Below, in pieces: positions 4,817-63,442 of a DNA stretch of 64,000 nt (its first letter is position 1; each line of letters starts with the position of its first letter). The position numbers and the translations under genes are program-made. Source of the DNA: Parcubacteria group bacterium Athens0714_16 (lineage in GTDB: Bacteria > Patescibacteriota > Minisyncoccia > Phycocordibacterales > 21-14-all-36-13); assembly GCA_007376805.1 (NCBI GenBank), contig VMGX01000002.1, forward strand, positions 47,116 through 111,115, read 5' to 3'. The notes beneath the pieces are model-generated. The model saw only the letters and a list, made by a program, of their open reading frames with translations, was not told the DNA's origin and searched no databases.

Positions 4817-4872
4817 ATTCTGTCTTGAGATGCGTATCTCAACTGATGAGTCCAAAAGGACGAAACAAAAAA
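4817..4872 (+). ncRNA. hammerhead ribozyme, type III topology
   Basis: GUC(4822-4824) | stem I hairpin UUGAGAU-GCGU-AUCUCAA (4825-4842) | CUGAUGA (4843-4849) | stem II GUCC-AAAA-GGAC (4850-4861) | GAA (4862-4864) | ACA... pairing with UGU (4821-4823). All invariant core positions are present. Confidence 0.8.
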
Positions 4873-13593: not shown

Positions 13594-15075
13594 CTATTTT
13601 ACACCATATTTACCTCTTAATATCTTCTTTTCTTTTTCTTCTTCTGCCCCCATTTTTTCTTTTCCCTTTTCTCCAAGCTCGCGAAGCGTTTGGTTATCAA
13701 ACTTTGATAGCTCCACAGTTCTTTTTTCAAGGTAATCCTTGGTATTTTTTTTGGGATCGCCCAAAACTTCTTCAAGAAGCGCGCTTAATATGTATCCTAT
13801 TTTAGGCCCCGGTGTTTCTTGTGTAACGTTCATTATTCCCGACCCGTCTATTTTAAGCATTTTTACTGAAATTGGGTCTCTTATCACTTCCTCGATCATT
13901 GATTTGTATTTTCTTAATCTATAAGGGTCTTCTTTTGGTCTACCCGTTCCTACGCGATCTGCGATCCTTATGTTCATTAGATCCCAAATGTTTTCTGGTC
14001 CCACATTACTTAACATTCTTCTAACCGCTGACAATGTTATTTGATCTGTGTCTGAAAAAAACATATGCCATCTTGTTAATAAAACAACTTTTTCTATTGT
14101 TTTTGTTGGGAATTTTAGGTTTTTTAGTATTTTTTCTGTAATTTGTGAACCAACAACCTCGTGTCCATGAAACGTCCAGTCCTGTTTTTCTTCAGACCAT
14201 CTTCTTGTTCTTGGTTTCCCTATATCATGAAAAAGTGCGGATAATCTTATTTCGAGGGACCATTTTTTGTTTGAAGTAACCTGAACTGCCCTTAAAGAGT
14301 GTTCCCAGACGTCGTATGAATGTGCCTGGTTTTGTTTTGTTCCCAAACCTTCCTCCAGTTCAGGAATTATATATTCTAAGATATTTAATCTGTTCATCAT
14401 TTCTATTCCGAACATTGGTCTATCTGACATGATAATTTTGATAAATTCATCACGAATTCTTTCTTTTGCTATCAAATCTATCTTTTGTGGCATCTTTTTT
14501 ATTGATTTCTCTGTTTCTGTGTTTATTATAAAACCAAGTTCTGAGGATAACCTTATTGCTCTTAGTATTCTTAAACCATCTTCATTAAATCTCTCATCTG
14601 CTTTCCCAACAGTTTTTATTATGCCATTGTTCAAATCTTTTATTCCCCCAAACAAATCTATCACTGTTTCATATAGAACATTGGTTGTTTCACGTGAAAC
14701 CTTTAATGCAAGTGCATTTATAGTAAAATCACGTCTTTTTAGATCATCTTCCAGTTTTTCACTAAAAACAACACTGTCCGGTCTTCTGCTATCGGAATAG
14801 TTTGCGTCTAGTCTGTATGTTGTGACTTCTACAACTTTTAGTTTCTCATTTTCTGTTTCGTCGTTAACAACACGAACCGTTCCAAAGTCGTTGTCATAAT
14901 GTGAATGTTCAAAAAGGGAAGTGATTTGGTCTGGTCTGGCGCTTGTTGTTATGTCCCAATCTTTCGGCTCTCTGTTCATAAAAATGTCCCTTACACAGCC
15001 ACCAACAAGATACGCCTCAAAACCAGCGCTTTCTAATTTTCCAGTTATTTGGGATATTTCTTTTGGTATTTGCAT
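13594..15075 (-). CDS. cca: CCA-adding enzyme / poly(A) polymerase family nucleotidyltransferase with HD domain
   Basis: N-terminal GGCVRD nucleotidyltransferase motif, central RLSALFHDIGKP HD motif, and a long C-terminal extension. Confidence 0.85.
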   Translation of the reverse strand: MQIPKEISQITGKLESAGFEAYLVGGCVRDIFMNREPKDWDITTSARPDQITSLFEHSHYDNDFGTVRVVNDETENEKLKVVEVTTYRLDANYSDSRRPDSVVFSEKLEDDLKRRDFTINALALKVSRETTNVLYETVIDLFGGIKDLNNGIIKTVGKADERFNEDGLRILRAIRLSSELGFIINTETEKSIKKMPQKIDLIAKERIRDEFIKIIMSDRPMFGIEMMNRLNILEYIIPELEEGLGTKQNQAHSYDVWEHSLRAVQVTSNKKWSLEIRLSALFHDIGKPRTRRWSEEKQDWTFHGHEVVGSQITEKILKNLKFPTKTIEKVVLLTRWHMFFSDTDQITLSAVRRMLSNVGPENIWDLMNIRIADRVGTGRPKEDPYRLRKYKSMIEEVIRDPISVKMLKIDGSGIMNVTQETPGPKIGYILSALLEEVLGDPKKNTKDYLEKRTVELSKFDNQTLRELGEKGKEKMGAEEEKEKKILRGKYGVK

Positions 15076-51858: not shown

Positions 51859-52755
51859 ATGCGTGATTACCCATTAGAAAAAGTTAGAAACATAGGAATT
51901 ATTGCACACATAGACGCGGGGAAAACAACAGTTTCCGAGCGCGTTCTTTTTTATACAGGAGTTTCTCACAAAATAGGTGAAGTCCACGAAGGAAAGGCGG
52001 TTATGGATTGGATGGAACAGGAAAGAGAAAGAGGAATTACCATTACATCCGCTGCAACGACTTGTTTTTGGACTCCAACATATCAAACAATGCAGATAAA
52101 CGCAGATAAAAAATCGCAGATTGACGCAGATGAAACAAAAAAAGAATTTGAACACAGAATAAATATTATAGATACACCAGGACACGTGGACTTTACAGTT
52201 GAGGTTGAGAGATCTCTGAAGGTTCTTGACGGTGGTGTTGTTGTTTTTGACGGAGTCGCAGGAGTTGAACCACAGTCAGAAACAGTTTGGAGACAGGCAG
52301 ATAAATATCATGTTCCAAGAATTTGTTTTATAAACAAACTCGATAGAACAGGAGGAAATTTTGAAAGGTCATACAAAACAATTTTAGATAGATTAACAAA
52401 AAATGCAGTTAGAATGCAGATACCGATCGGTGAAGAAGAAAAACACATGGGAGTTGTTGATCTTTTGAAAATGAAAGCATTTTATTTTGAAGGAGATTTA
52501 GGGAGCACAATAAGAGAAGCTGAAATCCCAGACGAATTAAAGGCTGATGCACAGAAATACAGAAATGAACTTGTAGAAAAAATTGTTGAGAACGACGAAG
52601 AAATGATGACCAAATATCTTGGCGGTGAAGAGATTGGAGTTGATATTTTGAAAAAACTTTTAAGAAAATCAGTAATTGCTGGGTTGGTTGTTCCTGTTTT
52701 TACTGGTTCCGCATTAAAAAATAAAGGAGTTCAACTTGGATGTTCCGCCAATTAA
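51859..52755 (+). CDS. fusA: elongation factor G, N-terminal (G domain) ORF
   Basis: [14 protein letters not shown] and NKLD GTPase motifs. Ends ...[14 protein letters not shown] after a frame break. Contains a 27-aa insertion before [11 protein letters not shown]. Confidence 0.85.
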
Positions 52756-54007
52756 AGGAATAGACCCAAACACTGACGGAGAAATAGAAAGAAAATCAGA
52801 TGATAACGAGCCGTTTGCTGCGCTTGCTTTTAAATTACAAACGGACCCATTCGTTGGTCAGTTAACATATTTTAGAGTTTATTCAGGAACACTTGAATCT
52901 GGTTCTTATGTGTACAATTCTACAACAGGAGAAAAAGAAAGAATCGGAAGAATTTTAAGAATGCATGCAAACCTAAGAGAAGATGTAAAAAAAGTTTATG
53001 CAGGAGAAATTGCAGCAGCTGTTGGTCTTAAAAACACAAGAACATCAGATACTCTTTGTGACGAAGTCCATCCAATAATTCTTGAAAGAATTGTGTTCCC
53101 AGAACCGGTTGTATCTTTGAGAATTGAACCAAAAACAAAAGCAGACCAAGAAAAAATGGGTATTGCACTTAAAAAACTTTCTGACGAAGATCCAACATTC
53201 AGAATTAAATCAGATCAAGAAACACTGGAGACAATTATTTCTGGTATGGGAGAATTACACCTCGATATTATTGTGGACAGAATGAAAAGAGAATTTAATG
53301 TTGAAGCAAATATAGGCAAACCACAGGTTGCATACAGAGAAACAATAACAGGCGAGGCAGAAGCAGAATATAAATACATAAGACAAACAGGTGGTCGCGG
53401 ACAATACGGTCACGTAAAAATTAGAGTCAAACCAATGCCGTTAGAAGAAGAAAAAAATAAAAAACTTGCAAGAAATATAAAGAGGTCTGAGGGACTTGAA
53501 TTTATAAATAATATTAAAGGGGGCGTTATTCCACAAGAATATATTCCAGCAGTTGAAAAAGGGGTTCGTGAAGCGATGGACAGAGGTATTCAGGCTGGTT
53601 ATAAAATTGTAAATGTGTCAGTGGATTTGTTTGACGGTTCATTCCACGACGTTGACTCTTCTGAAATTGCATTCAAAATTGCAGCATCACAAGCATTTCA
53701 AGATGCAACAAAAAGAGCAAAACCAGTTATTCTTGAGCCTGTTATGAAATTAGAAGTTGTTACACCAGATAAATTTATGGGAGACATAACAGGAAATCTT
53801 GCTTCAAAGAGAGGACAAATTGAAGGCTCTGAAGAAAGAATTGGTTTGAAAGTAATTCATGCGAAAGTTCCTCTTTCAGAAATGTTTGGATATACGACAT
53901 CATTACGTTCAATGACAGAAGGCCGTGCATCTTCAACAATGGAATTTGATCATTATGCGATTGTACCGGAGAATGTTGCTAAAGAAATTATAGAAGCGAG
54001 AAAGTAG
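52736..54007 (+). CDS. fusA: elongation factor G, domains II-V ORF
   Basis: (L)DVPPIKG...PFAALAFK...ISGMGELHL...[11 protein letters not shown]. In the +1 frame relative to the upstream ORF. TTG at 52736 lies 6 nt after AAGGAG. Confidence 0.85.
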
Positions 54008-56487: not shown

Positions 56488-57296
56488 CTAACCTTGTGTT
56501 AAGAAATATGAACGAATACAAAAAATCACTAAAAAAGCGGAGGTAATAATCTTGTTTTTGAAGGATTATCGCCCGCTTATTAAAGCGGTTTTTTTATTAA
56601 AGAAATTGGCGGAATGACTGGACGAATGAACATTGAAAAATGAATATTAGTTAAGTTTAAAAGCAGAATCCAAGTGTCTTTTTCGTGGCACTGGATTTTA
56701 AAGTATTTTTCATCTAGCGGAATAGAAATATTCCATAGAAAATAAGTTTTATTAAGTCCCGCGTGATTTAATAAAAAAATTGTGGTTTATGTAGTTCCTA
56801 ACAGGAAATACATAAGGGCGTATGGTGGATGCCTTGACTCTAAGAGGCGATGAAGGACGTGGCATGGCTGCGATAAACTTCGGGGAGGTGCCTAGCAACC
56901 TTTGATCCGAAGGTTTCCGAATGGGGTAACCCATTGTGACAAACTCACAATACTGAATTTATTCAGTGCATACCTGGGGAAGTAAAACATTTCAGTACCC
57001 AGAGGAAAATAGAACAATAGTTATTCCCTTAGTAGCGGCGAGCGAAAAGGGAAAAGCCCAAACCGAACTCTTTTATTAGGGCTCGGGGTTGTAGGACGTT
57101 AATATCATATTTATATGAAAGAAGTTACAAATGTGTTAGATAGTTGAACAAGCTGGAAAGCTTGGCCCCAGAGGGTGATAGCCCCTTAAACGAAATTTTA
57201 CACACTTCTTTGTTAATGTTCCTGAGTATCTCAAGACACGAATGGCTTGAGAGAATCTGCCGGAACTAACCGGTAAGGCTAAATACTCTTAGAGAT

Positions 57297-57339
<43 letters not shown>

Positions 57340-58679
57340 GGAGAGGGGAGTGAAATAGACCTGAAACCATATGTCTACAAGGAGTCGGAGCAGAACTCTA
57401 CTGAGTTCTTTAAATATGTTTTTTAAAATTTATAATTTATGGATTTTAAAATTAGAGAATTGAGTAGAGTTTCTGCGACGGCGTGCCTATTGAAGAATGA
57501 GCCAACGAGTTTACATGTACTGCTTGACTAAGTCCCGAAAGGACGGAGTCTAAGGGAAACCGAGTGTTAAAAGCGCGTTCCGCTTTATTGCGGGTGTAGT
57601 ATATGTAAGACCCGAAGCCAGGTGAGCTACCCATGATCAGGGTGAACTTTGTCGAAAGACAAAGGGAGGCCCGAACCGTTTAGCCGTGCAAAACTATCGG
57701 ATGAATTGTGGGTAGGAGTGAAAAGCTAATCGAACTTGGTAATAGCTGGTTCTCTCCGAAATAGCTTTAGGGCTAGCGTTTAGTTTATCTTTTGGGGGTA
57801 GAGCACTGGATGGTCTGGATAGGAGGCAACTTCACTAGACCAATCAAACTCCGAATACCAGAAGCCACTACTAAACAGTCAGACTACGGGGGCTAAGCTC
57901 CGTCGGTCAAAAGGGAAACAGCCCAGATCTCAAGTTAAGGTCCCTAAATTTACATTAAGTGCAAATAAGGAGGTGGAATTTCTCCGACAGCGAGGAGGTT
58001 GGCTTAGAAGCAGCCATCCTTTAAAGAAAGCGTAACAGCTCACTCGTTAAGAGATTTTGCGCCACAAATAATCGGGGCTAAATGTGATACCGAAACTGAG
58101 GATGTCATCACTTTATTGTGATGGCGTGGTAGGAGAGCATTCCGTTCTACTGTGAAGCCAAAGGGGTGACCCATGGTGGAGTGTACGGAAGAGATAATGT
58201 TGGCACGAGTAACCACAATTCCACTAAGAAAGTGGAACGCCGAAAGATCAAGGTTTCCTTGGCAATGTAAATCATCCAAGGGTTAGTCGGTCCTAAGGTT
58301 ATGACGAAAGTCGGAGCCGATGGACACACGGTTAATATTCCGTGACTTTCATTTATTTCGATGGGGTGACGAAGTTTAGTATGTTTGGCGCATTATTGGA
58401 TTTGCGTCTACTTTGTGAGGAAGGTGCTTAGGCAAATCCGGGCACCTGACTTTAATGTCAATTCCAAGCGAGGCGGAGAACCTGAGATTCGTCAAAGGGA
58501 ATCAAACAAAGCAAGCTTCCAAGAAAAACCTCTAAGGTTAAATAAATGAAAACCGTACCGAAAACCGACACAGGTGATCAGGTCGAGAAGACTAAGGCGA
58601 ATGAGTGAGTGTTCCCCAAGGAACTCGGCAAAAAAGCAGCCGTAACTTTGGAATAAGGCTTTCCAGCTCCAATTTTGGG

Positions 58680-58950
58680 AGTAAAATTAAATTATGAATT
58701 ATGTTTATCTTATTCAAAATGATTTTGATGGAGAAATATATATTGGACAAACTTCTGATATAAAAAGAAGGTTGGCTGAACATAATAATAAATGTCAAAA
58801 AGTTTACCACTAAAAAACGGTAAGTGGATAATTATTTATCTTGAAATATTCAGAAATAAAAAAGATGCACAAGAAAGAGAAAATAAATTAAAACAACATG
58901 GTGGTGGTAAAAAAGAATTACTTAAGCGACTAAGATATAGTTTGCTTGAG
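58680..58950 (+). other. 271-nt insertion in the terminal loop of a helix-63-equivalent hairpin
   Basis: Closed by the 17-bp helix CCAGCTCCAATTTTGGG (58663-58679) with CCCAAAATTGGAGCTGG (58951-58967). Lacks the AUAUAGUC group I signature. Confidence 0.6.
58694..58935 (+). pseudogene. frameshifted GIY-YIG nuclease gene inside the 23S insertion
   Basis: Frame 1 reads MNYVYLIQNDFDGEIYIGQTSDIKRRLAEHNNK (GIY-YIG N-half, stop at 58813). The C-half KWIIIYLEIFRNKKDAQERENKLKQ continues in another frame from about 58792, with no stop until 59028 in rRNA sequence. The shift lies near an A-run. Confidence 0.65.
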
Positions 58951-59124
58951 CCCAAAATTGGAGCTGGACGCAGCGAAAGTACCCCTGGCGACTGTTTACC
59001 AAAAACACAGCTCCCTGCGAACTCGTAAGAGGATGTATAGGGGGTGACGCCTGACCAATGCCAGAAGGTTAAACATGAGGGGTCCAAGAAGTTTTACTTT
59101 TTGGGCTGGATTATGTAAGCCCTG

Positions 59125-59159
<35 letters not shown>

Positions 59160-59611
59160 TCTCGGTTTAATTTTTAAATTGAATCGAGAAAGACTAGGAC
59201 TGTTATAATAAAAAATTGGTAACAAAAGATTGCTGCCTATTTCACGTAAAGTGAAATGTCTATAAAATTTGACCATATGCTGGGAAACCCGCGATGTATC
59301 CTTAAGTACTCGTTTAATTTTTTAAACAGTAACAAACTTTAAGGTGATGCGGAAAATCAGCAGGAAAGTTTGAATTCTTTTTAATTAAATCTAGAATTCA
59401 AAATCCTCAGAGACTAAAAGTCAGACTAAGTTGTCTACAAAAACAATTTAGAAAATATAGTCCGAACTTTGTGGCGACACAGAGAGTGAGACAGAAATGT
59501 TCTTACCTTGTATCTGCGTTCATCTGCGCCTGCCCCGTAGCTAGAGCATAGCTCTATGGTACTGGGGTATAATTTGCGTAGATCTGCGTTTGTTACAAAG
59601 TAACAAAGTTG
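59160..59611 (+). mobile_element. group I intron (ORF-less) at the E. coli 1917-equivalent position
   Basis: Interrupts CCTAAGGT|...G|AGCGTAATTCC. The 5' exon ends in U and the intron ends in G. Contains AGACTAAAAGTC and GAAAATATAGTCC core-like motifs. Confidence 0.75.
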
Positions 59612-60105
59612 AGCGTAATTCCTTGTGTGGTAAGTTCACACGTGCACGAATGGCGTAACGACTGGGGGACTGTCTCGGGGAACAGCTCGGTGAAAATACA
59701 GTATCGGTGAAGATGCCGATTACCTGCAACGGGACGAAAAGACCCCGGGAGCTTTACTGCAACTTCGTATTGAATATACGTTTCATCTGCGTAGCATAGA
59801 TGGGAGACTTTGAAGTTTGTTTTTCGGAACAGATGGAGTCAACAGTGAAATACCATTCTTATGTGATGTATATTCTAACCTCAACGGCAAAAACGGTGAG
59901 GGACATTGCGTGGTGGGCAGTTTTAGTGGGGCGCTATCCTCCTAAAGAGTAACGGAGGAGTTTATCAAGGTCAGCTAGGCGCGAATGGAAACCGTGCCGA
60001 TAGTGTAATGGCACAAGCTGGCTTAACTGCGAGACGGACATGTCGAGCAGATGCGAAAGCAGAACATAATGAACCGACGATTCGAATTAGACACGGTCGG
60101 AGATT

Positions 60106-60138
<33 letters not shown>

Positions 60139-60181
60139 GGTTCCGCCTAAGCGTTCAGAGCGACGGCGGAGTTCGGCACCT

Positions 60182-60503
60182 TAAAGTAAATTTACAAATT
60201 TAAATCGGGGTGCGACGTGAGAGATTGCGTAGCCTGGAATCAAAAACATATTTGTAGGAGAATATGTTCAGATTAAAAATATTGGCTTATAACGGTGGAC
60301 TCCATCATAAAAATTTTTATTATGGACAATACCGTGGGAAGTCTTCGTTTTCAAAAACGAATGACCCCGTAGAGACTGATGCGAAAGCAGAGAGTATTTC
60401 ATAAACGAAATGCTAATACGCCAACTCCTAACCACAATAAATTAATTGTGGAAGGAAGAAGATATAGTCCGATCCTTCTGGTAACAGAAGAAAAATGACA
60501 TTG
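60182..60503 (+). mobile_element. group I intron (ORF-less) at the E. coli ~2500-equivalent position
   Basis: Interrupts GGCACCT|...G|CGATGTCGG. Contains GAAGATATAGTCC. Shares blocks with the next intron. Confidence 0.75.
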
Positions 60504-60659
60504 CGATGTCGGCTCGACTTATCCTGGGACTGGAGAAGGCCCCAAGGGTTTGGCTGTTCGCCAATTAAAAAGTCACGTGAGCTGGGTTCAGACCGTCGTG
60601 AGACAGGTTGGTCTCCTATCTGTTGCAGGCGTCGATTTTTGAGGAGATTTGCTTCTAGT

Positions 60660-61486
60660 AAGTAATTGCTACTTCTCATAGTAATATGGGATGACAATTT
60701 GGCTAATAACGGTGAAATCTTCATAGGTTATCTGGCAGTGGAAAAACAATTAGCGCGGTCCGTTAATTGTGATAAAATTACTTGAGGACCAGATAATTTT
60801 TAAGACAATACCGTGGGAAGTCGATCTAAAATTAATTTAGCATATATCGCTGGTTTTCTTGATGGAGATGGAAGTTTAATGCTCCAAATAAAGAAAAGAA
60901 GTGATAACAAAAGAGGGATTCGTTTTATGGCGACAATATGTTTCTATCAAGATAGTCGTCACGATGAACCTTTATATTGGATAAGAAAAGAATTAAACAT
61001 AGGGTATGTTTCAAAAAGAAAAGATGGAATTACTGAATTGAGGATCAATGGATTTGAGAGAATTGAAGAAATTCTTAAAAATCTTATTCCTTATATAAAA
61101 TTCAAAAAGATACAAGCAAAAGCATTATATGATTGTTGTAAAATTTTACAAAAACCAATGAATGCTTTAAAAGAAAGTGATTTCAGAAAACTTGTAGATT
61201 TGATTCTTACAATTCAAAAAGAAAACTATGTTTCAAAGAAAAAGAAAGACAAAGAAGAATTGCTAAAACTATTAGATTTGACCCCGTAACGACTTGTTTT
61301 GTTCAATCTAATTTGAACAAACGGACTTGTATAATTTCGGAAGGTTCTGAAATATTTTAGGACAGATTTATACTTGTAATACGCCGACACCCTAATCAAC
61401 ACAAGGTTGGTGGGTGAAGATATAGTCTACACTCCTAGAAATAGGGGATAAATTCTAAATCAATTAAAAAGATTAAGAAATATGTG
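60660..61486 (+). mobile_element. group I intron with LAGLIDADG ORF in the sarcin-ricin loop region
   Basis: Interrupts CTAGT|...G|ACGAGAGGACC. Contains GAAGATATAGTCT. The ORF is inserted between the blocks CAATACCGTGGGAAGTC and TGACCCCGTA. Confidence 0.75.
60813..61289 (+). CDS. single-motif LAGLIDADG homing endonuclease (I-CreI-like)
   Basis: 158 aa. LAYIAGFLDGDGSLMLQIKKR motif and overall I-CreI-like layout. GTG start within a conserved intron block. Confidence 0.85.
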   Translation: MGSRSKINLAYIAGFLDGDGSLMLQIKKRSDNKRGIRFMATICFYQDSRHDEPLYWIRKELNIGYVSKRKDGITELRINGFERIEEILKNLIPYIKFKKIQAKALYDCCKILQKPMNALKESDFRKLVDLILTIQKENYVSKKKKDKEELLKLLDLTP

Positions 61487-61565
61487 ACGAGAGGACCGAA
61501 GTGAACTGACCTCTGGTGTACCTGCTGTCGTGCCAACGGCACCGCAGGGTAGCTATGTCGGGAAA

Positions 61566-61598
<33 letters not shown>

Positions 61599-61874
61599 AA
61601 CTCCAAGATAAGAAATCATTTAAGATTCCTGAGAGATGATCAGGTTGATAGGCCTTAGGTGTAAGCACAGCAATGTGTTCAGCCGAGAGGTACTAATTTA
61701 ATCAAAATTACTTCCTGTTGGGAGCTATGTGAGCTACAATATTTTATTTTTGTGGATTCTTTATTCCGCTAGGTGAAAAATACTTTATCTGTTTTTATAT
61801 ACTTAACTATTATTTTTTTTCTGAACTAAATTTTTTGAATTTAGTGCTTTTTTGTTCTTTTTAAATATTTAATT

Positions 61875-61983
61875 GGCGGTATAGTTTAATCTGCTCTGGG
61901 CAGACTGACCAGTGGTTTTTGGTTAGGGTTAAAACGTCGCCCTTTTAAGGCGAAGAGTATTGGTTCGAGTCCGATTATCGTCA
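61875..61983 (+). tRNA. tRNA-Lys (anticodon UUU) with a 36-nt D-loop insertion
   Basis: Acceptor GGCGGTA/TATCGTC, D-stem GTTT/AAAC, anticodon arm TCGCC-CTTTTAA-GGCGA, T-arm ATTGG-TTCGAGT-CCGAT. The insert at 61891-61926 lies between AAT and GGTTA of the D-loop. Confidence 0.6.
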
Positions 61984-61989
61984 CAAAAG

Positions 61990-62064
61990 GCGGGGGTAGT
62001 TCAGTTGGTTAGAACATTCGTTTCGCAAAACGAAAGGTCGGTGGTTCGAGTCCACCCCTCTGCT
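61990..62064 (+). tRNA. tRNA-Ala-like (G3:U70; CGC-containing 8-nt anticodon loop)
   Basis: Acceptor GCGGGGG/CCTCTGC with G3:U70, D-arm GTTC-AGTTGGTTA-GAAC, anticodon stem TTCGT/ACGAA enclosing TTCGCAAA (8 nt), variable AGGTC, T-arm GGTGG-TTCGAGT-CCACC. Confidence 0.6.
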
Positions 62065-62205
62065 CGAAGTTTTTTTTGAGTTCTTTTATATGGGCCGTTG
62101 AATTAACAGACCGAGGTCTTTAGTGACTGGCGTAACAGCGCGGGCTCAACGGAACGGGAGAGCTTGGTTGGGGTAATCGGTAAATCACCCACGGTCTATC
62201 ATTTT

Positions 62206-62679
62206 TTAGATAAGTTTTTTGTTTGCTCGCACAGTTTGTGCGAGCTTTTTGTTTGTTTTTTCAAAACTCTCGATGTTTCCTTTAATAATTTTAAAAAGTG
62301 GATGTATTTTTATCTTTTCAATCTTTTTTAATTCAGAATATTTTATTTTGTCTCTATTTTTTAGTTTATTTTTTAAATGTTTAAATTCATATTCTAACTG
62401 TCCACTTGTTACATTAATACAAATTTTTTTGTAATTTTTTTCAATTTTATTTTTATCAAATTTATATTTTCTTTCAGATGCTTCTTTTTCGATGTGATGG
62501 AGATATGTATTTATTGAATTCAACGAATTTTTTGTATTTTTAAAACGCAAAAGCTGTGGATGATTTTTATAACCCACAGTTTTTCCTTCAAGAACTTTTT
62601 TTGCAAGAAGGCCTTCTCGCCAAACAGCTAAAAGTCCCATCCGGTCTAAATATTTTGGATGTATACTCCATAAACGCAT
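62206..62679 (-). CDS. pyrimidine dimer DNA glycosylase (T4 endonuclease V / DenV-like family)
   Basis: MRLWSIHPKYLDRMGLLAVWREGLLAKKVLEGKTVGYKNHPQLLRF is the family signature. Start set at MRLW; the ORF is open to 62733. Confidence 0.75.
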   Translation of the reverse strand: MRLWSIHPKYLDRMGLLAVWREGLLAKKVLEGKTVGYKNHPQLLRFKNTKNSLNSINTYLHHIEKEASERKYKFDKNKIEKNYKKICINVTSGQLEYEFKHLKNKLKNRDKIKYSELKKIEKIKIHPLFKIIKGNIESFEKTNKKLAQTVRANKKLI

Positions 62680-62842
62680 ATTAGATAATTGATGAAATTT
62701 GAATTCCGATTTGATGCGGTGTGTATTAAACAAAGTTCGAATGTATTTTGCTGATAATCCTGATGCCGACTAATCGCACGCGCGGAGCGCGTGGTGGCTC
62801 TAAACCTCTCTGTACGCTCGTATCGTTCCGCCACCTGCCTGA

Positions 62843-63442
62843 ATACTTGAAAGTCCTTTTTACTACGGGGTATTTGAAAAACCAATAGGAAGCGGAAATT
62901 GGTATCAAGGAAAACATATACCGTTGATAACGCAGGAATTATTTGAAAAAGTAAAAACACAATTAAAGAGAGATAATATAGTTCGCCAATCAAAAGAATT
63001 TACTTTCACAAAACTAATGACCTGTGGACTTTGTGGTTCAGGGATATCTGCCGAAGAAAAATATAAGCAACTCAAAGACGGGACAACAGCTACATATAGA
63101 TATTATGGATGTAGTAGAGCAAAGGATAGATATTGTAAAAACCAATACCTACAAGAGAAAGATTTAACCGATCAGTTTATTAAATTAATAGATTCTGTAG
63201 ATTTAAATGAAGCGGGAGTAAAAATAAAATTTGAAGAGGAGTTAAGGAGATATAATAAATTTAATCTTGGAGTTTTGGGAGTTCAAAAGAAAAAAACAAA
63301 ACATGAAGATATTGATTTAAAAACATATGTGAAATATATTCTCCGAGATGGTACAAGTCAGGAGAAAAGAGAATTGATGGGATGTTTTAAATCAAAGATT
63401 AAAATTACGAAGAAAGTAGTGACGATCTCAGAATGTCGGTAA
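62843..63442 (+). pseudogene. 5'-truncated large serine recombinase (recombinase and zinc-ribbon domains only)
   Basis: Open frame ...FYYGVFEKPIGSGNWYQGKHIPLITQELFEKV then CGLCGSGISAEEKY...YRYYGCS zinc-ribbon and coiled coil. The N-terminal resolvase catalytic domain is absent, and an upstream in-frame TGA lies at 62840. Confidence 0.65.

Follow-up and report, generated by a model that had tools for sequence, protein, structure and literature searches.

A tRNA-Lys(UUU) gene with a 36-nucleotide D-loop insertion behind the 23S rRNA gene of a Parcubacteria group bacterium

Genes behind the 23S rRNA gene and their counterparts in relatives

The window, that is, the whole 64-kb stretch of DNA analyzed here, carries near its 3' end a 23S rRNA gene followed by two tRNA genes, a G+C-rich element, and a terminator-like hairpin (Table 1). 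The first of the two tRNA genes, at 61875-61983 on the plus strand, encodes a tRNA-Lys(UUU) whose D-loop is enlarged by 36 nt.

Table 1. Features of the locus and their positions in the window
Feature	Position	Strand	Description	Evidence
23S rRNA gene	56802-61720	+	Three or more group I introns; one LAGLIDADG ORF	Rfam, Pfam, 3'-end sequence
tRNA-Lys, 5' part	61875-61890	+	Acceptor 5' strand, U8, A9, D-stem 5' strand, A14, A15, U16	Sequence; ARAGORN after removal of the insert
tRNA-Lys, D-loop insert	61891-61926	+	36 nt at position 16/17	Folding; identical in contigs L002 and L110
tRNA-Lys, 3' part	61927-61983	+		Rfam tRNA match, ARAGORN
Neighboring tRNA	61990-62065	+	6 nt 3' of tRNA-Lys	ARAGORN "cgca" (Ala/Cys), Rfam 58.8 bits
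G+C-rich element	62090-62202	+	~113 nt, between the tRNAs and the terminator	Folding, alignment
Intrinsic-terminator-like hairpin with T-run	62225-62255 (hairpin 62225-62245)	+	GCTCGCACAGTTTGTGCGAGC plus T-run	Kept in relative L066

Rfam places the group I introns of the 23S rRNA gene at 59214-59484, 60242-60491, and 61270-61448, and the LAGLIDADG ORF spans 60813-61289. The Rfam LSU alignment stops at 60656, and the actual 3' end of the gene lies at ~61720, ~155 nt upstream of tRNA-Lys. Because a promoter scan found no promoter-like site between the 23S rRNA and the tRNAs, cotranscription with the 23S rRNA is the simplest reading, which suggests that tRNA-Lys is transcribed together with the rRNA at a high level. 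The terminator-like hairpin would plausibly close this 23S-tRNA transcription unit.

The tRNA next to tRNA-Lys has an 8-nt anticodon loop, UUCGCAAA, together with a G3:U70 pair and a discriminator U. G3:U70 is the alanine identity pair, and an enlarged anticodon loop is a typical trait of frameshift-suppressor or recoding tRNAs. The 113-nt element behind it is predicted to form a three-way junction with a 9-bp closing helix (-37.4 kcal/mol, z = -1.8) and has no Rfam match. It was also considered as a singly interrupted tRNA and rejected, as a deletion scan found no single deletion that restores a tRNA.

Two further contigs carry the locus: a Logan contig (L002, from SRR8863440) is 100% identical over 61584-62210, and an ENA contig (L110, from ERZ27284377) is identical over 57045-62097, with 0 mismatches over 5,053 nt. 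The window and these two contigs represent three assemblies, which may share reads, with L002 and L110 coming from separate collections. ERZ27284377 shows a contig break at 62088-62097, where L110 ends at 62097 and a second contig (L001) starts at 62088. The break falls on the border of the tRNA pair and the 113-nt element, L002 is continuous across it, and it hints at strain variation at this junction.

Contigs of relatives that carry the 23S rRNA gene were retrieved via the homing-endonuclease ORF of the 23S intron. The close relative is represented by contigs from Hainich groundwater (L066 to L069 and L111). Between L066 and the window, the EF-G DNA is 89.5% identical and the 23S exons are 99 to 100% identical, roughly a genus-level similarity, and the order EF-G, small ORF, 23S rRNA is common to the window and the Hainich contigs. 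The 23S rRNA gene of L066 (L066:3005-10900) carries four LAGLIDADG ORFs. Behind the 23S rRNA gene, the Hainich contigs keep the spacer and the terminator with a single tRNA, Val(AAC), between them, and tRNA-Lys is absent at this locus from L066 to L069 and from L111. In the alignment, the tRNA next to tRNA-Lys takes the place of the quite different tRNA-Val(AAC) of L066, and the 113-nt element is missing from the Hainich contigs. This tRNA-Val(AAC), which has A34, lies directly after the 23S rRNA (L066:11141-11215, and also in L067, L068, L069, and L111); A34 is unusual in bacterial tRNAs except in tRNA-Arg(ACG).

The same stretch differs again in other relatives. Contigs L076 and L077 keep the spacer and have the slot behind it filled by unrelated non-tRNA sequence; a MAFFT alignment of the L076 slot to tRNA-Lys was tried and scored 20 versus a shuffle mean of 20.3, which is not significant. 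In the more distant L079, L082, and L086, the slot holds a 5S rRNA, which is absent after the 23S rRNA both in the window and in its clade. Since the content differs among L066, L076/L077, and L079/L082/L086, the stretch from spacer to terminator is a variable slot, and tRNA-Lys appears, from these comparisons, to be a lineage-specific occupant of it. Since this gene is missing from the locus in the close relative, the genus is likelier to encode its essential tRNA-Lys(UUU) elsewhere, and the gene described here is probably an accessory copy, not the sole tRNA-Lys(UUU) of the cell.

The 44 ORFs of the window that were scanned include genes for KsgA, PNPase, a CCA-adding enzyme, RNase Y, trigger factor, ClpP, NusA, and type IV pilus components, and further bacterial core genes are those for TIM, RecJ, ComEC, and EF-G. 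A 235-amino-acid protein encoded upstream is an orphan. EF-G is split into two ORFs (51859-52755 and 52736-54007) by a 38-nt frameshifting deletion at ~52735 relative to L066, which takes out part of the conserved ...QLVLDGVVDYLPSPLD... segment; a look-up of the N-terminal fragment returned no record. The split is either a real fusA pseudogene, implying a second copy elsewhere, or an assembly error. Either a decayed gene or an error comparable in size to the insert is thus present on this contig. Past the terminator, the region looks horizontally acquired, since synteny with L066 ends there. A pyrimidine-dimer glycosylase gene (Pyr_excise) follows the terminator directly, in a region that spans 62206-63442 and beyond, and a fragment that contains a recombinase zinc-ribbon domain lies at 62924-63442. 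The closest homologs of Pyr_excise are scattered over DPANN archaea and unrelated bacteria. They were considered as a synteny handle and set aside, being spread across phyla, with the contig of an 82%-identical match stopping short of the tRNAs.

The tRNA-Lys body and its insert

An earlier note, written from the letters of the window, had described a tRNA-Lys(UUU) gene with a 36-nt D-loop insertion and every canonical tRNA-Lys element in place. The sequence bears this out in both respects. The gene reads GGCGGTA-TA-GTTT-AAT-[CTGCTCTGGGCAGACTGACCAGTGGTTTTTGGTTAG]-GGTTA-AAAC-G-TCGCC-CTTTTAA-GGCGA-AGAGT-ATTGG-TTCGAGT-CCGAT-TATCGTC-A. The acceptor stem pairs GGCGGTA (61875-61881) with TATCGTC (61976-61982) over 7 bp, including 2 G-U pairs, and is followed by the discriminator A (61983), that is, the Lys-type A73. 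The D-stem pairs GTTT (61884-61887) with AAAC (61932-61935) over 4 bp. The anticodon arm, TCGCC-CTTTTAA-GGCGA, presents UUU at 61944-61946, and a 5-nt variable loop, AGAGT, precedes the T-arm ATTGG-TTCGAGT-CCGAT. All 21 stem pairs of the insert-free cloverleaf are standard, and the stems, the 7-nt anticodon loop (U33, UUU, A37), the T-loop, and A73 are those of a canonical bacterial tRNA-Lys(UUU). The core bases are complete as well: U8, A9, A14, A15/U48, G18, G19, A21, G26/A44, U33, A37, U54-U55-C56, A58, and A73. Stem pairing and conserved bases are thus undamaged, and the lost pairs or bases of a pseudogene are not seen. The D-loop is the exception, with 44 nt (8 + 36) against a canonical length of ~7 to 11 nt; it reads AAT-[36 nt, 61891-61926]-GGTTA, with G18 G19 U U A21 at 61927-61931. 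No CCA is encoded, as in every tRNA gene of the window. The note had also likened the D-arm without its insert to a D-arm GTTT-AGTGGTA-AAAC in both tRNA-Gly genes of the window, which is right for tRNA-Gly(TCC), whereas tRNA-Gly(GCC) reads GTTT-AGTGGTA-GAAC.

ARAGORN made no call on the intact gene by default, and the intron modes (-i; -i0,60), which the note had put forward as a check, left it uncalled as well. When the insert was deleted in silico, the default run called tRNA-Lys(ttt), and the minimum-energy fold of the insert-free tRNA is the exact cloverleaf (-16.8 kcal/mol). On the intact gene, the Rfam tRNA model matches 61920-61975 only (model positions 8-63; 37.4 bits versus a gathering score of 29). 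The note had held that a cloverleaf failing under covariance-model scoring would speak against the gene, and the outcome is divided: the full-length model fails to span the gene, and the 3' three-quarters exceeds the gathering threshold. A 13-mer with the 7-nt acceptor and 4-nt D-stem complements within 150 nt upstream is supplied by only 191 of 200,000 shuffles, so the 5' strand arrangement is not due to chance. An alternative tRNA at 61912-61985, which ARAGORN offered with relaxed thresholds and which starts inside the insert, was rejected for its mismatched acceptor stem and shifted T-arm. No other tRNA-Lys or partial tRNA match was found in the 64-kb window, and the loci of three relatives held no further partial tRNA matches.

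The insert lies exactly between U16 and G18. Its boundaries are not fixed by ARAGORN, because deletions of 30 to 44 nt with any start in 61880-61908 are all accepted. We chose 61890/61891 and 61926/61927, which leave the D-loop AAU-GGUUA, in agreement with the uninterrupted tRNA-Lys D-loops AATGGCTA (L025) and AACGGTTA (L017). In a cloverleaf-constrained fold, the two small hairpins that the note had seen in the insert are confirmed, and both are longer than it stated. Hairpin 1, UCUGCU-CUG-GGCAGA (61890-61904), has 6 bp and the loop CUG and includes U16, and hairpin 2, CUGACCAG-UGGUUU-UUGGUUAG (61905-61926), has 8 bp and the loop UGGUUU; the two abut with zero linker. Folded in this way, the whole gene reaches -31.8 kcal/mol versus -33.5 kcal/mol without constraint, a gap of 1.7 kcal/mol. 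The insert alone reaches -13.6 kcal/mol versus -7.1 ± 2.3 kcal/mol for its shuffles, 14 of 1,000 of which fold equally well. In the predicted cloverleaf-plus-hairpins fold, A14, A15, G18, G19, U20, U20a, and A21 stay unpaired, and no tRNA core base is sequestered, since the boundaries of the insert are also those of the hairpins.

Signals of removal or origin were sought in and around the insert. An exhaustive scan over all pairs of cut sites found no bulge-helix-bulge (BHB) motif that would also give a D-loop with G18 and G19, and the best candidate depends on A-U and G-U pairing in competition with the D-stem. Neither EndA nor an RtcB-type ligase was found among the 44 window ORFs scanned against Pfam. 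The likeness to archaeal noncanonical introns that the note had drawn is not upheld by these two negative results. A search of Rfam over 61850-62260 (E ≤ 10) placed no family on the insert, whether group I, group II, small ribozyme, or any other, and the hammerhead, twister, pistol, hatchet, and HDV-like models had no match over it. No second copy of the insert was found in the 64-kb window (≤3 mismatches; short-word BLAST), and its core had 0 matches in IMG/VR. There is no target-site duplication at its junctions and no meaningful ORF on either strand, and predicted duplexes of the insert with the neighboring tRNA or the 113-nt element were no better than those for shuffles.

Further examples and comparison with known systems

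The exact anticodon-arm pattern had 0 matches in 185,579 GTDB species genomes. A generic pattern for an expanded D-loop (GTTT-N30-60-AAAC-anticodon-T-loop) had 9 matches in these genomes and 0 in IMG/VR, and all 9 were rejected, being either normal tRNAs that happen to have a GTTT upstream or 3' tRNA-Lys halves beside unrelated DNA. A relaxed anticodon-arm pattern found 53 loci in JGI metagenomes, all of them normal tRNA-Lys genes or 3' tRNA halves; none has the insert, and none is from this organism. A viral anticodon-arm scan yielded 23 phage tRNA-Lys genes, all with normal D-loops, and the insert-free tRNA, compared with phage genomes by BLAST, matched only other tRNAs, weakly, at ~78% identity. 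No member of a D-loop-expanded tRNA family with the same insertion site was found in GTDB, IMG/VR, or the 53 metagenome loci with these restrictive patterns, and absence elsewhere is not proven, because D-stem, loop spacing, and T-loop are all fixed in them.

About 40 of the 53 loci (L013-L065), from soil and freshwater, hold an orphan tRNA-Lys-like 3' half (...TA-AAAC-NNNGCCCTTTTAAGGCGTTGGTTCCGGGTTCGAGTCCCGGCCGACCCA) with no 5' half, for instance at L019:864-904, preceded by a duplicated motif, AGCAAYAAAATAGCAAC. Comparable orphan 3' halves occur in GTDB loci L003, L005, L007, L010, and L011. Integrative elements may use them as attachment sites, or they may represent a tRNA-like element.

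In the literature, we found no bacterial tRNA reported with a short insertion in its D-loop, and a review of noncanonical tRNAs lists no natural tRNA with an enlarged D-loop (PMC7609411). Patescibacteria are unusually intron rich in their rRNA and tRNA genes, and group I introns are known to interrupt the tRNA genes at position 35/36 of the anticodon loop; in a Bacillota genome, a D-loop was found to harbor one group II intron (Nakagawa et al. 2026, PMC13011429). The D-loop insert described here is unusual, with no bacterial description found, and is unreplicated. [quoted passage not shown] These introns are catalytic RNAs that match the 253-position Rfam group I model, like the introns of this operon, and sit in the anticodon loop, e.g., at 35/36, whereas the insert has 36 nt, sits in the D-loop, and matches no ribozyme.

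Other systems share single traits with the insert. The noncanonical introns of archaea and Cyanidioschyzon merolae include D-loop sites and are cut by a BHB-specific splicing endonuclease. Like the insert, they are short insertions outside the anticodon loop whose removal restores a canonical tRNA; unlike the archaeal introns, the insert has junctions without a BHB, no splicing endonuclease or RNA ligase was seen among the 44 window ORFs scanned, and the host is bacterial, as judged from 23S rRNA, EF-G, RecJ, ComEC, and NusA. Intervening sequences in bacterial rRNA, which RNase III cuts without religation, likewise add a structured segment to the gene of a stable RNA, occur in some close relatives and not in others, and are tolerated because they lie in surface-exposed loops. 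Their helices are long and extended, and they occur in rRNA; the insert, in a tRNA, has two hairpins, both short. Class II tRNAs (Leu, Ser, and Tyr) and tRNA-Sec with its altered D-arm also have an extra helical arm off the core and an intact L-shape. Because the extra arm leaves the L-shape undisturbed, class II tRNAs are a precedent for a tolerated expansion, although their arm lies in the variable region (44-48), is universal, and acts as an identity element, and the arm of the insert lies in the D-loop. tRNA pseudogenes, finally, are similarly uncalled by finders, lineage specific, and found in variable regions, but they usually have broken stems or lost bases, and the insert is the sole lesion of this tRNA-Lys.

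Fate of the insert

What becomes of the 36 nt once the gene is transcribed? With no known removal signal, and weighing the evidence for and against function, we rank retention of the insert first, a disabled copy second, excision third, and an artifact last. Our preference, a tentative one, is that the insert may be kept as an extra, fifth arm of a transcribed, probably accessory tRNA-Lys(UUU). Transcription would run on from the 23S rRNA through tRNA-Lys to the terminator. The ends of the tRNA, which has its neighbor only 6 nt downstream, would be released by RNase P and a 3' endonuclease, and the CCA-adding enzyme encoded at 13594-15075 would supply the CCA. The insert would fold autonomously into its two abutting hairpins, which could stack coaxially. 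Because A14, A15, G18, G19, and A21 stay unpaired, the elbow contacts U8-A14, A15-U48, G18-U55, and G19-C56 and the L-shape would remain possible. At the outer corner of the elbow, where tRNA residues 16 and 17 normally face the solvent, the insert would stand out as an additional rod.

Retention is favored by the flawless tRNA body, the core-compatible fold of the insert, and the want of a known removal signal; RNase III substrates are far longer than hairpins of 6 and 8 bp. An undamaged body with an autonomously folding insert at a solvent-facing site is what one expects of a tolerated expansion or an intervening sequence, not of a random lesion. Against retention stands the single case, with 0 related examples in the pattern searches of GTDB, IMG/VR, and JGI metagenomes, so that neither covariation nor conservation supports it. 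Against function stand the variable slot, the odd neighboring RNAs, the absence of the gene from L066, and the frameshifted EF-G, and a bulky arm at the elbow could disturb contacts with RNase P or the ribosome.

The same observations can be read as those of a redundant tRNA-Lys disabled recently, an accessory gene in the variable slot that was hit by a 36-nt insertion while an intact copy elsewhere does the decoding. We consider this quite possible, though it takes second place. It would fit a slot that in L066 holds only Val(AAC) between the kept spacer and terminator and in L076 and L077 no tRNA at all, and neighbors as odd as the unclassified 113-nt element and the tRNA whose anticodon loop has 8 nt. 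The lack of a second example in the pattern searches, the rejection of the gene by standard finders, and the 38-nt frameshifting deletion in EF-G on the same contig point the same way. Yet the insert aside, no stem pair or tertiary base is damaged, the insert occupies the most permissive site of the D-loop, and it folds neatly on itself (14 of 1,000 shuffles) without invading the core, which is unexpected for a random disabling insertion; it is also identical in three assemblies. This identity, together with the collinearity of the upstream spacer and downstream terminator with L066, makes an assembly error unlikely, and a chimeric join in a tRNA gene would not yield 36 novel self-complementary bases. 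An assembly or sequencing artifact, the refutation that the earlier note had foreseen, is therefore very improbable, even though the contig belongs to a metagenome-assembled genome, EF-G on the same contig has a 38-nt indel, and the ENA contig breaks close by, at 62088-62097.

A further alternative is that the insert is an intervening sequence excised after transcription by an undescribed route, leaving a religated tRNA or a nicked one in two pieces. Without religation, the two pieces, of 16 and 57 nt, would stay joined through the acceptor and D stems, like fragmented rRNAs. The compact, structured insert, bounded exactly by AAU and GGUUA as compared with the uninterrupted D-loops of L025 and L017, would suit this account, as would the abundance of introns in rRNA and tRNA genes of Patescibacteria (PMC13011429) and the three or more group I introns of this very operon. 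[quoted passage not shown] Its helices fall short of what RNase III needs, EndA and RtcB are absent among the 44 window ORFs scanned, and the insert has no guide-like complementarity to neighboring RNAs above the shuffle background. We regard excision as improbable.

A working tRNA-Lys with a two-hairpin fifth arm at 16/17, or one from which the arm is removed without a BHB endonuclease or self-splicing, would represent a new structural or processing class of tRNA, from a CPR bacterium, and we put the chance that either applies at a little short of even. If the RNA is made and used with its arm, the tRNA elbow can bear a large expansion at position 16/17, with consequences for tRNA engineering and for the recognition of tRNA shape by RNase P, aminoacyl-tRNA synthetases, and the ribosome. 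As pure speculation, an accessory tRNA-Lys of this form might escape nucleases that target tRNA-Lys. Should the gene be dead, its interest would shrink to that of a minor oddity in a variable tRNA slot after a 23S rRNA gene. Genes of this kind can escape the standard tRNA finders in CPR genomes, and this affects counts of "missing tRNAs," on which inferences about genome quality and the genetic code draw.

One more candidate RNA element lies in the window, apart from this locus. An intergenic stretch at 4817-4871 (+) resembles a type III hammerhead ribozyme, scoring 41.3 bits versus a gathering score of 48.5 (local E = 7e-8), and it has a complete catalytic core, consisting of CUGAUGAG, CGAAAC, and a GUC cleavage site.
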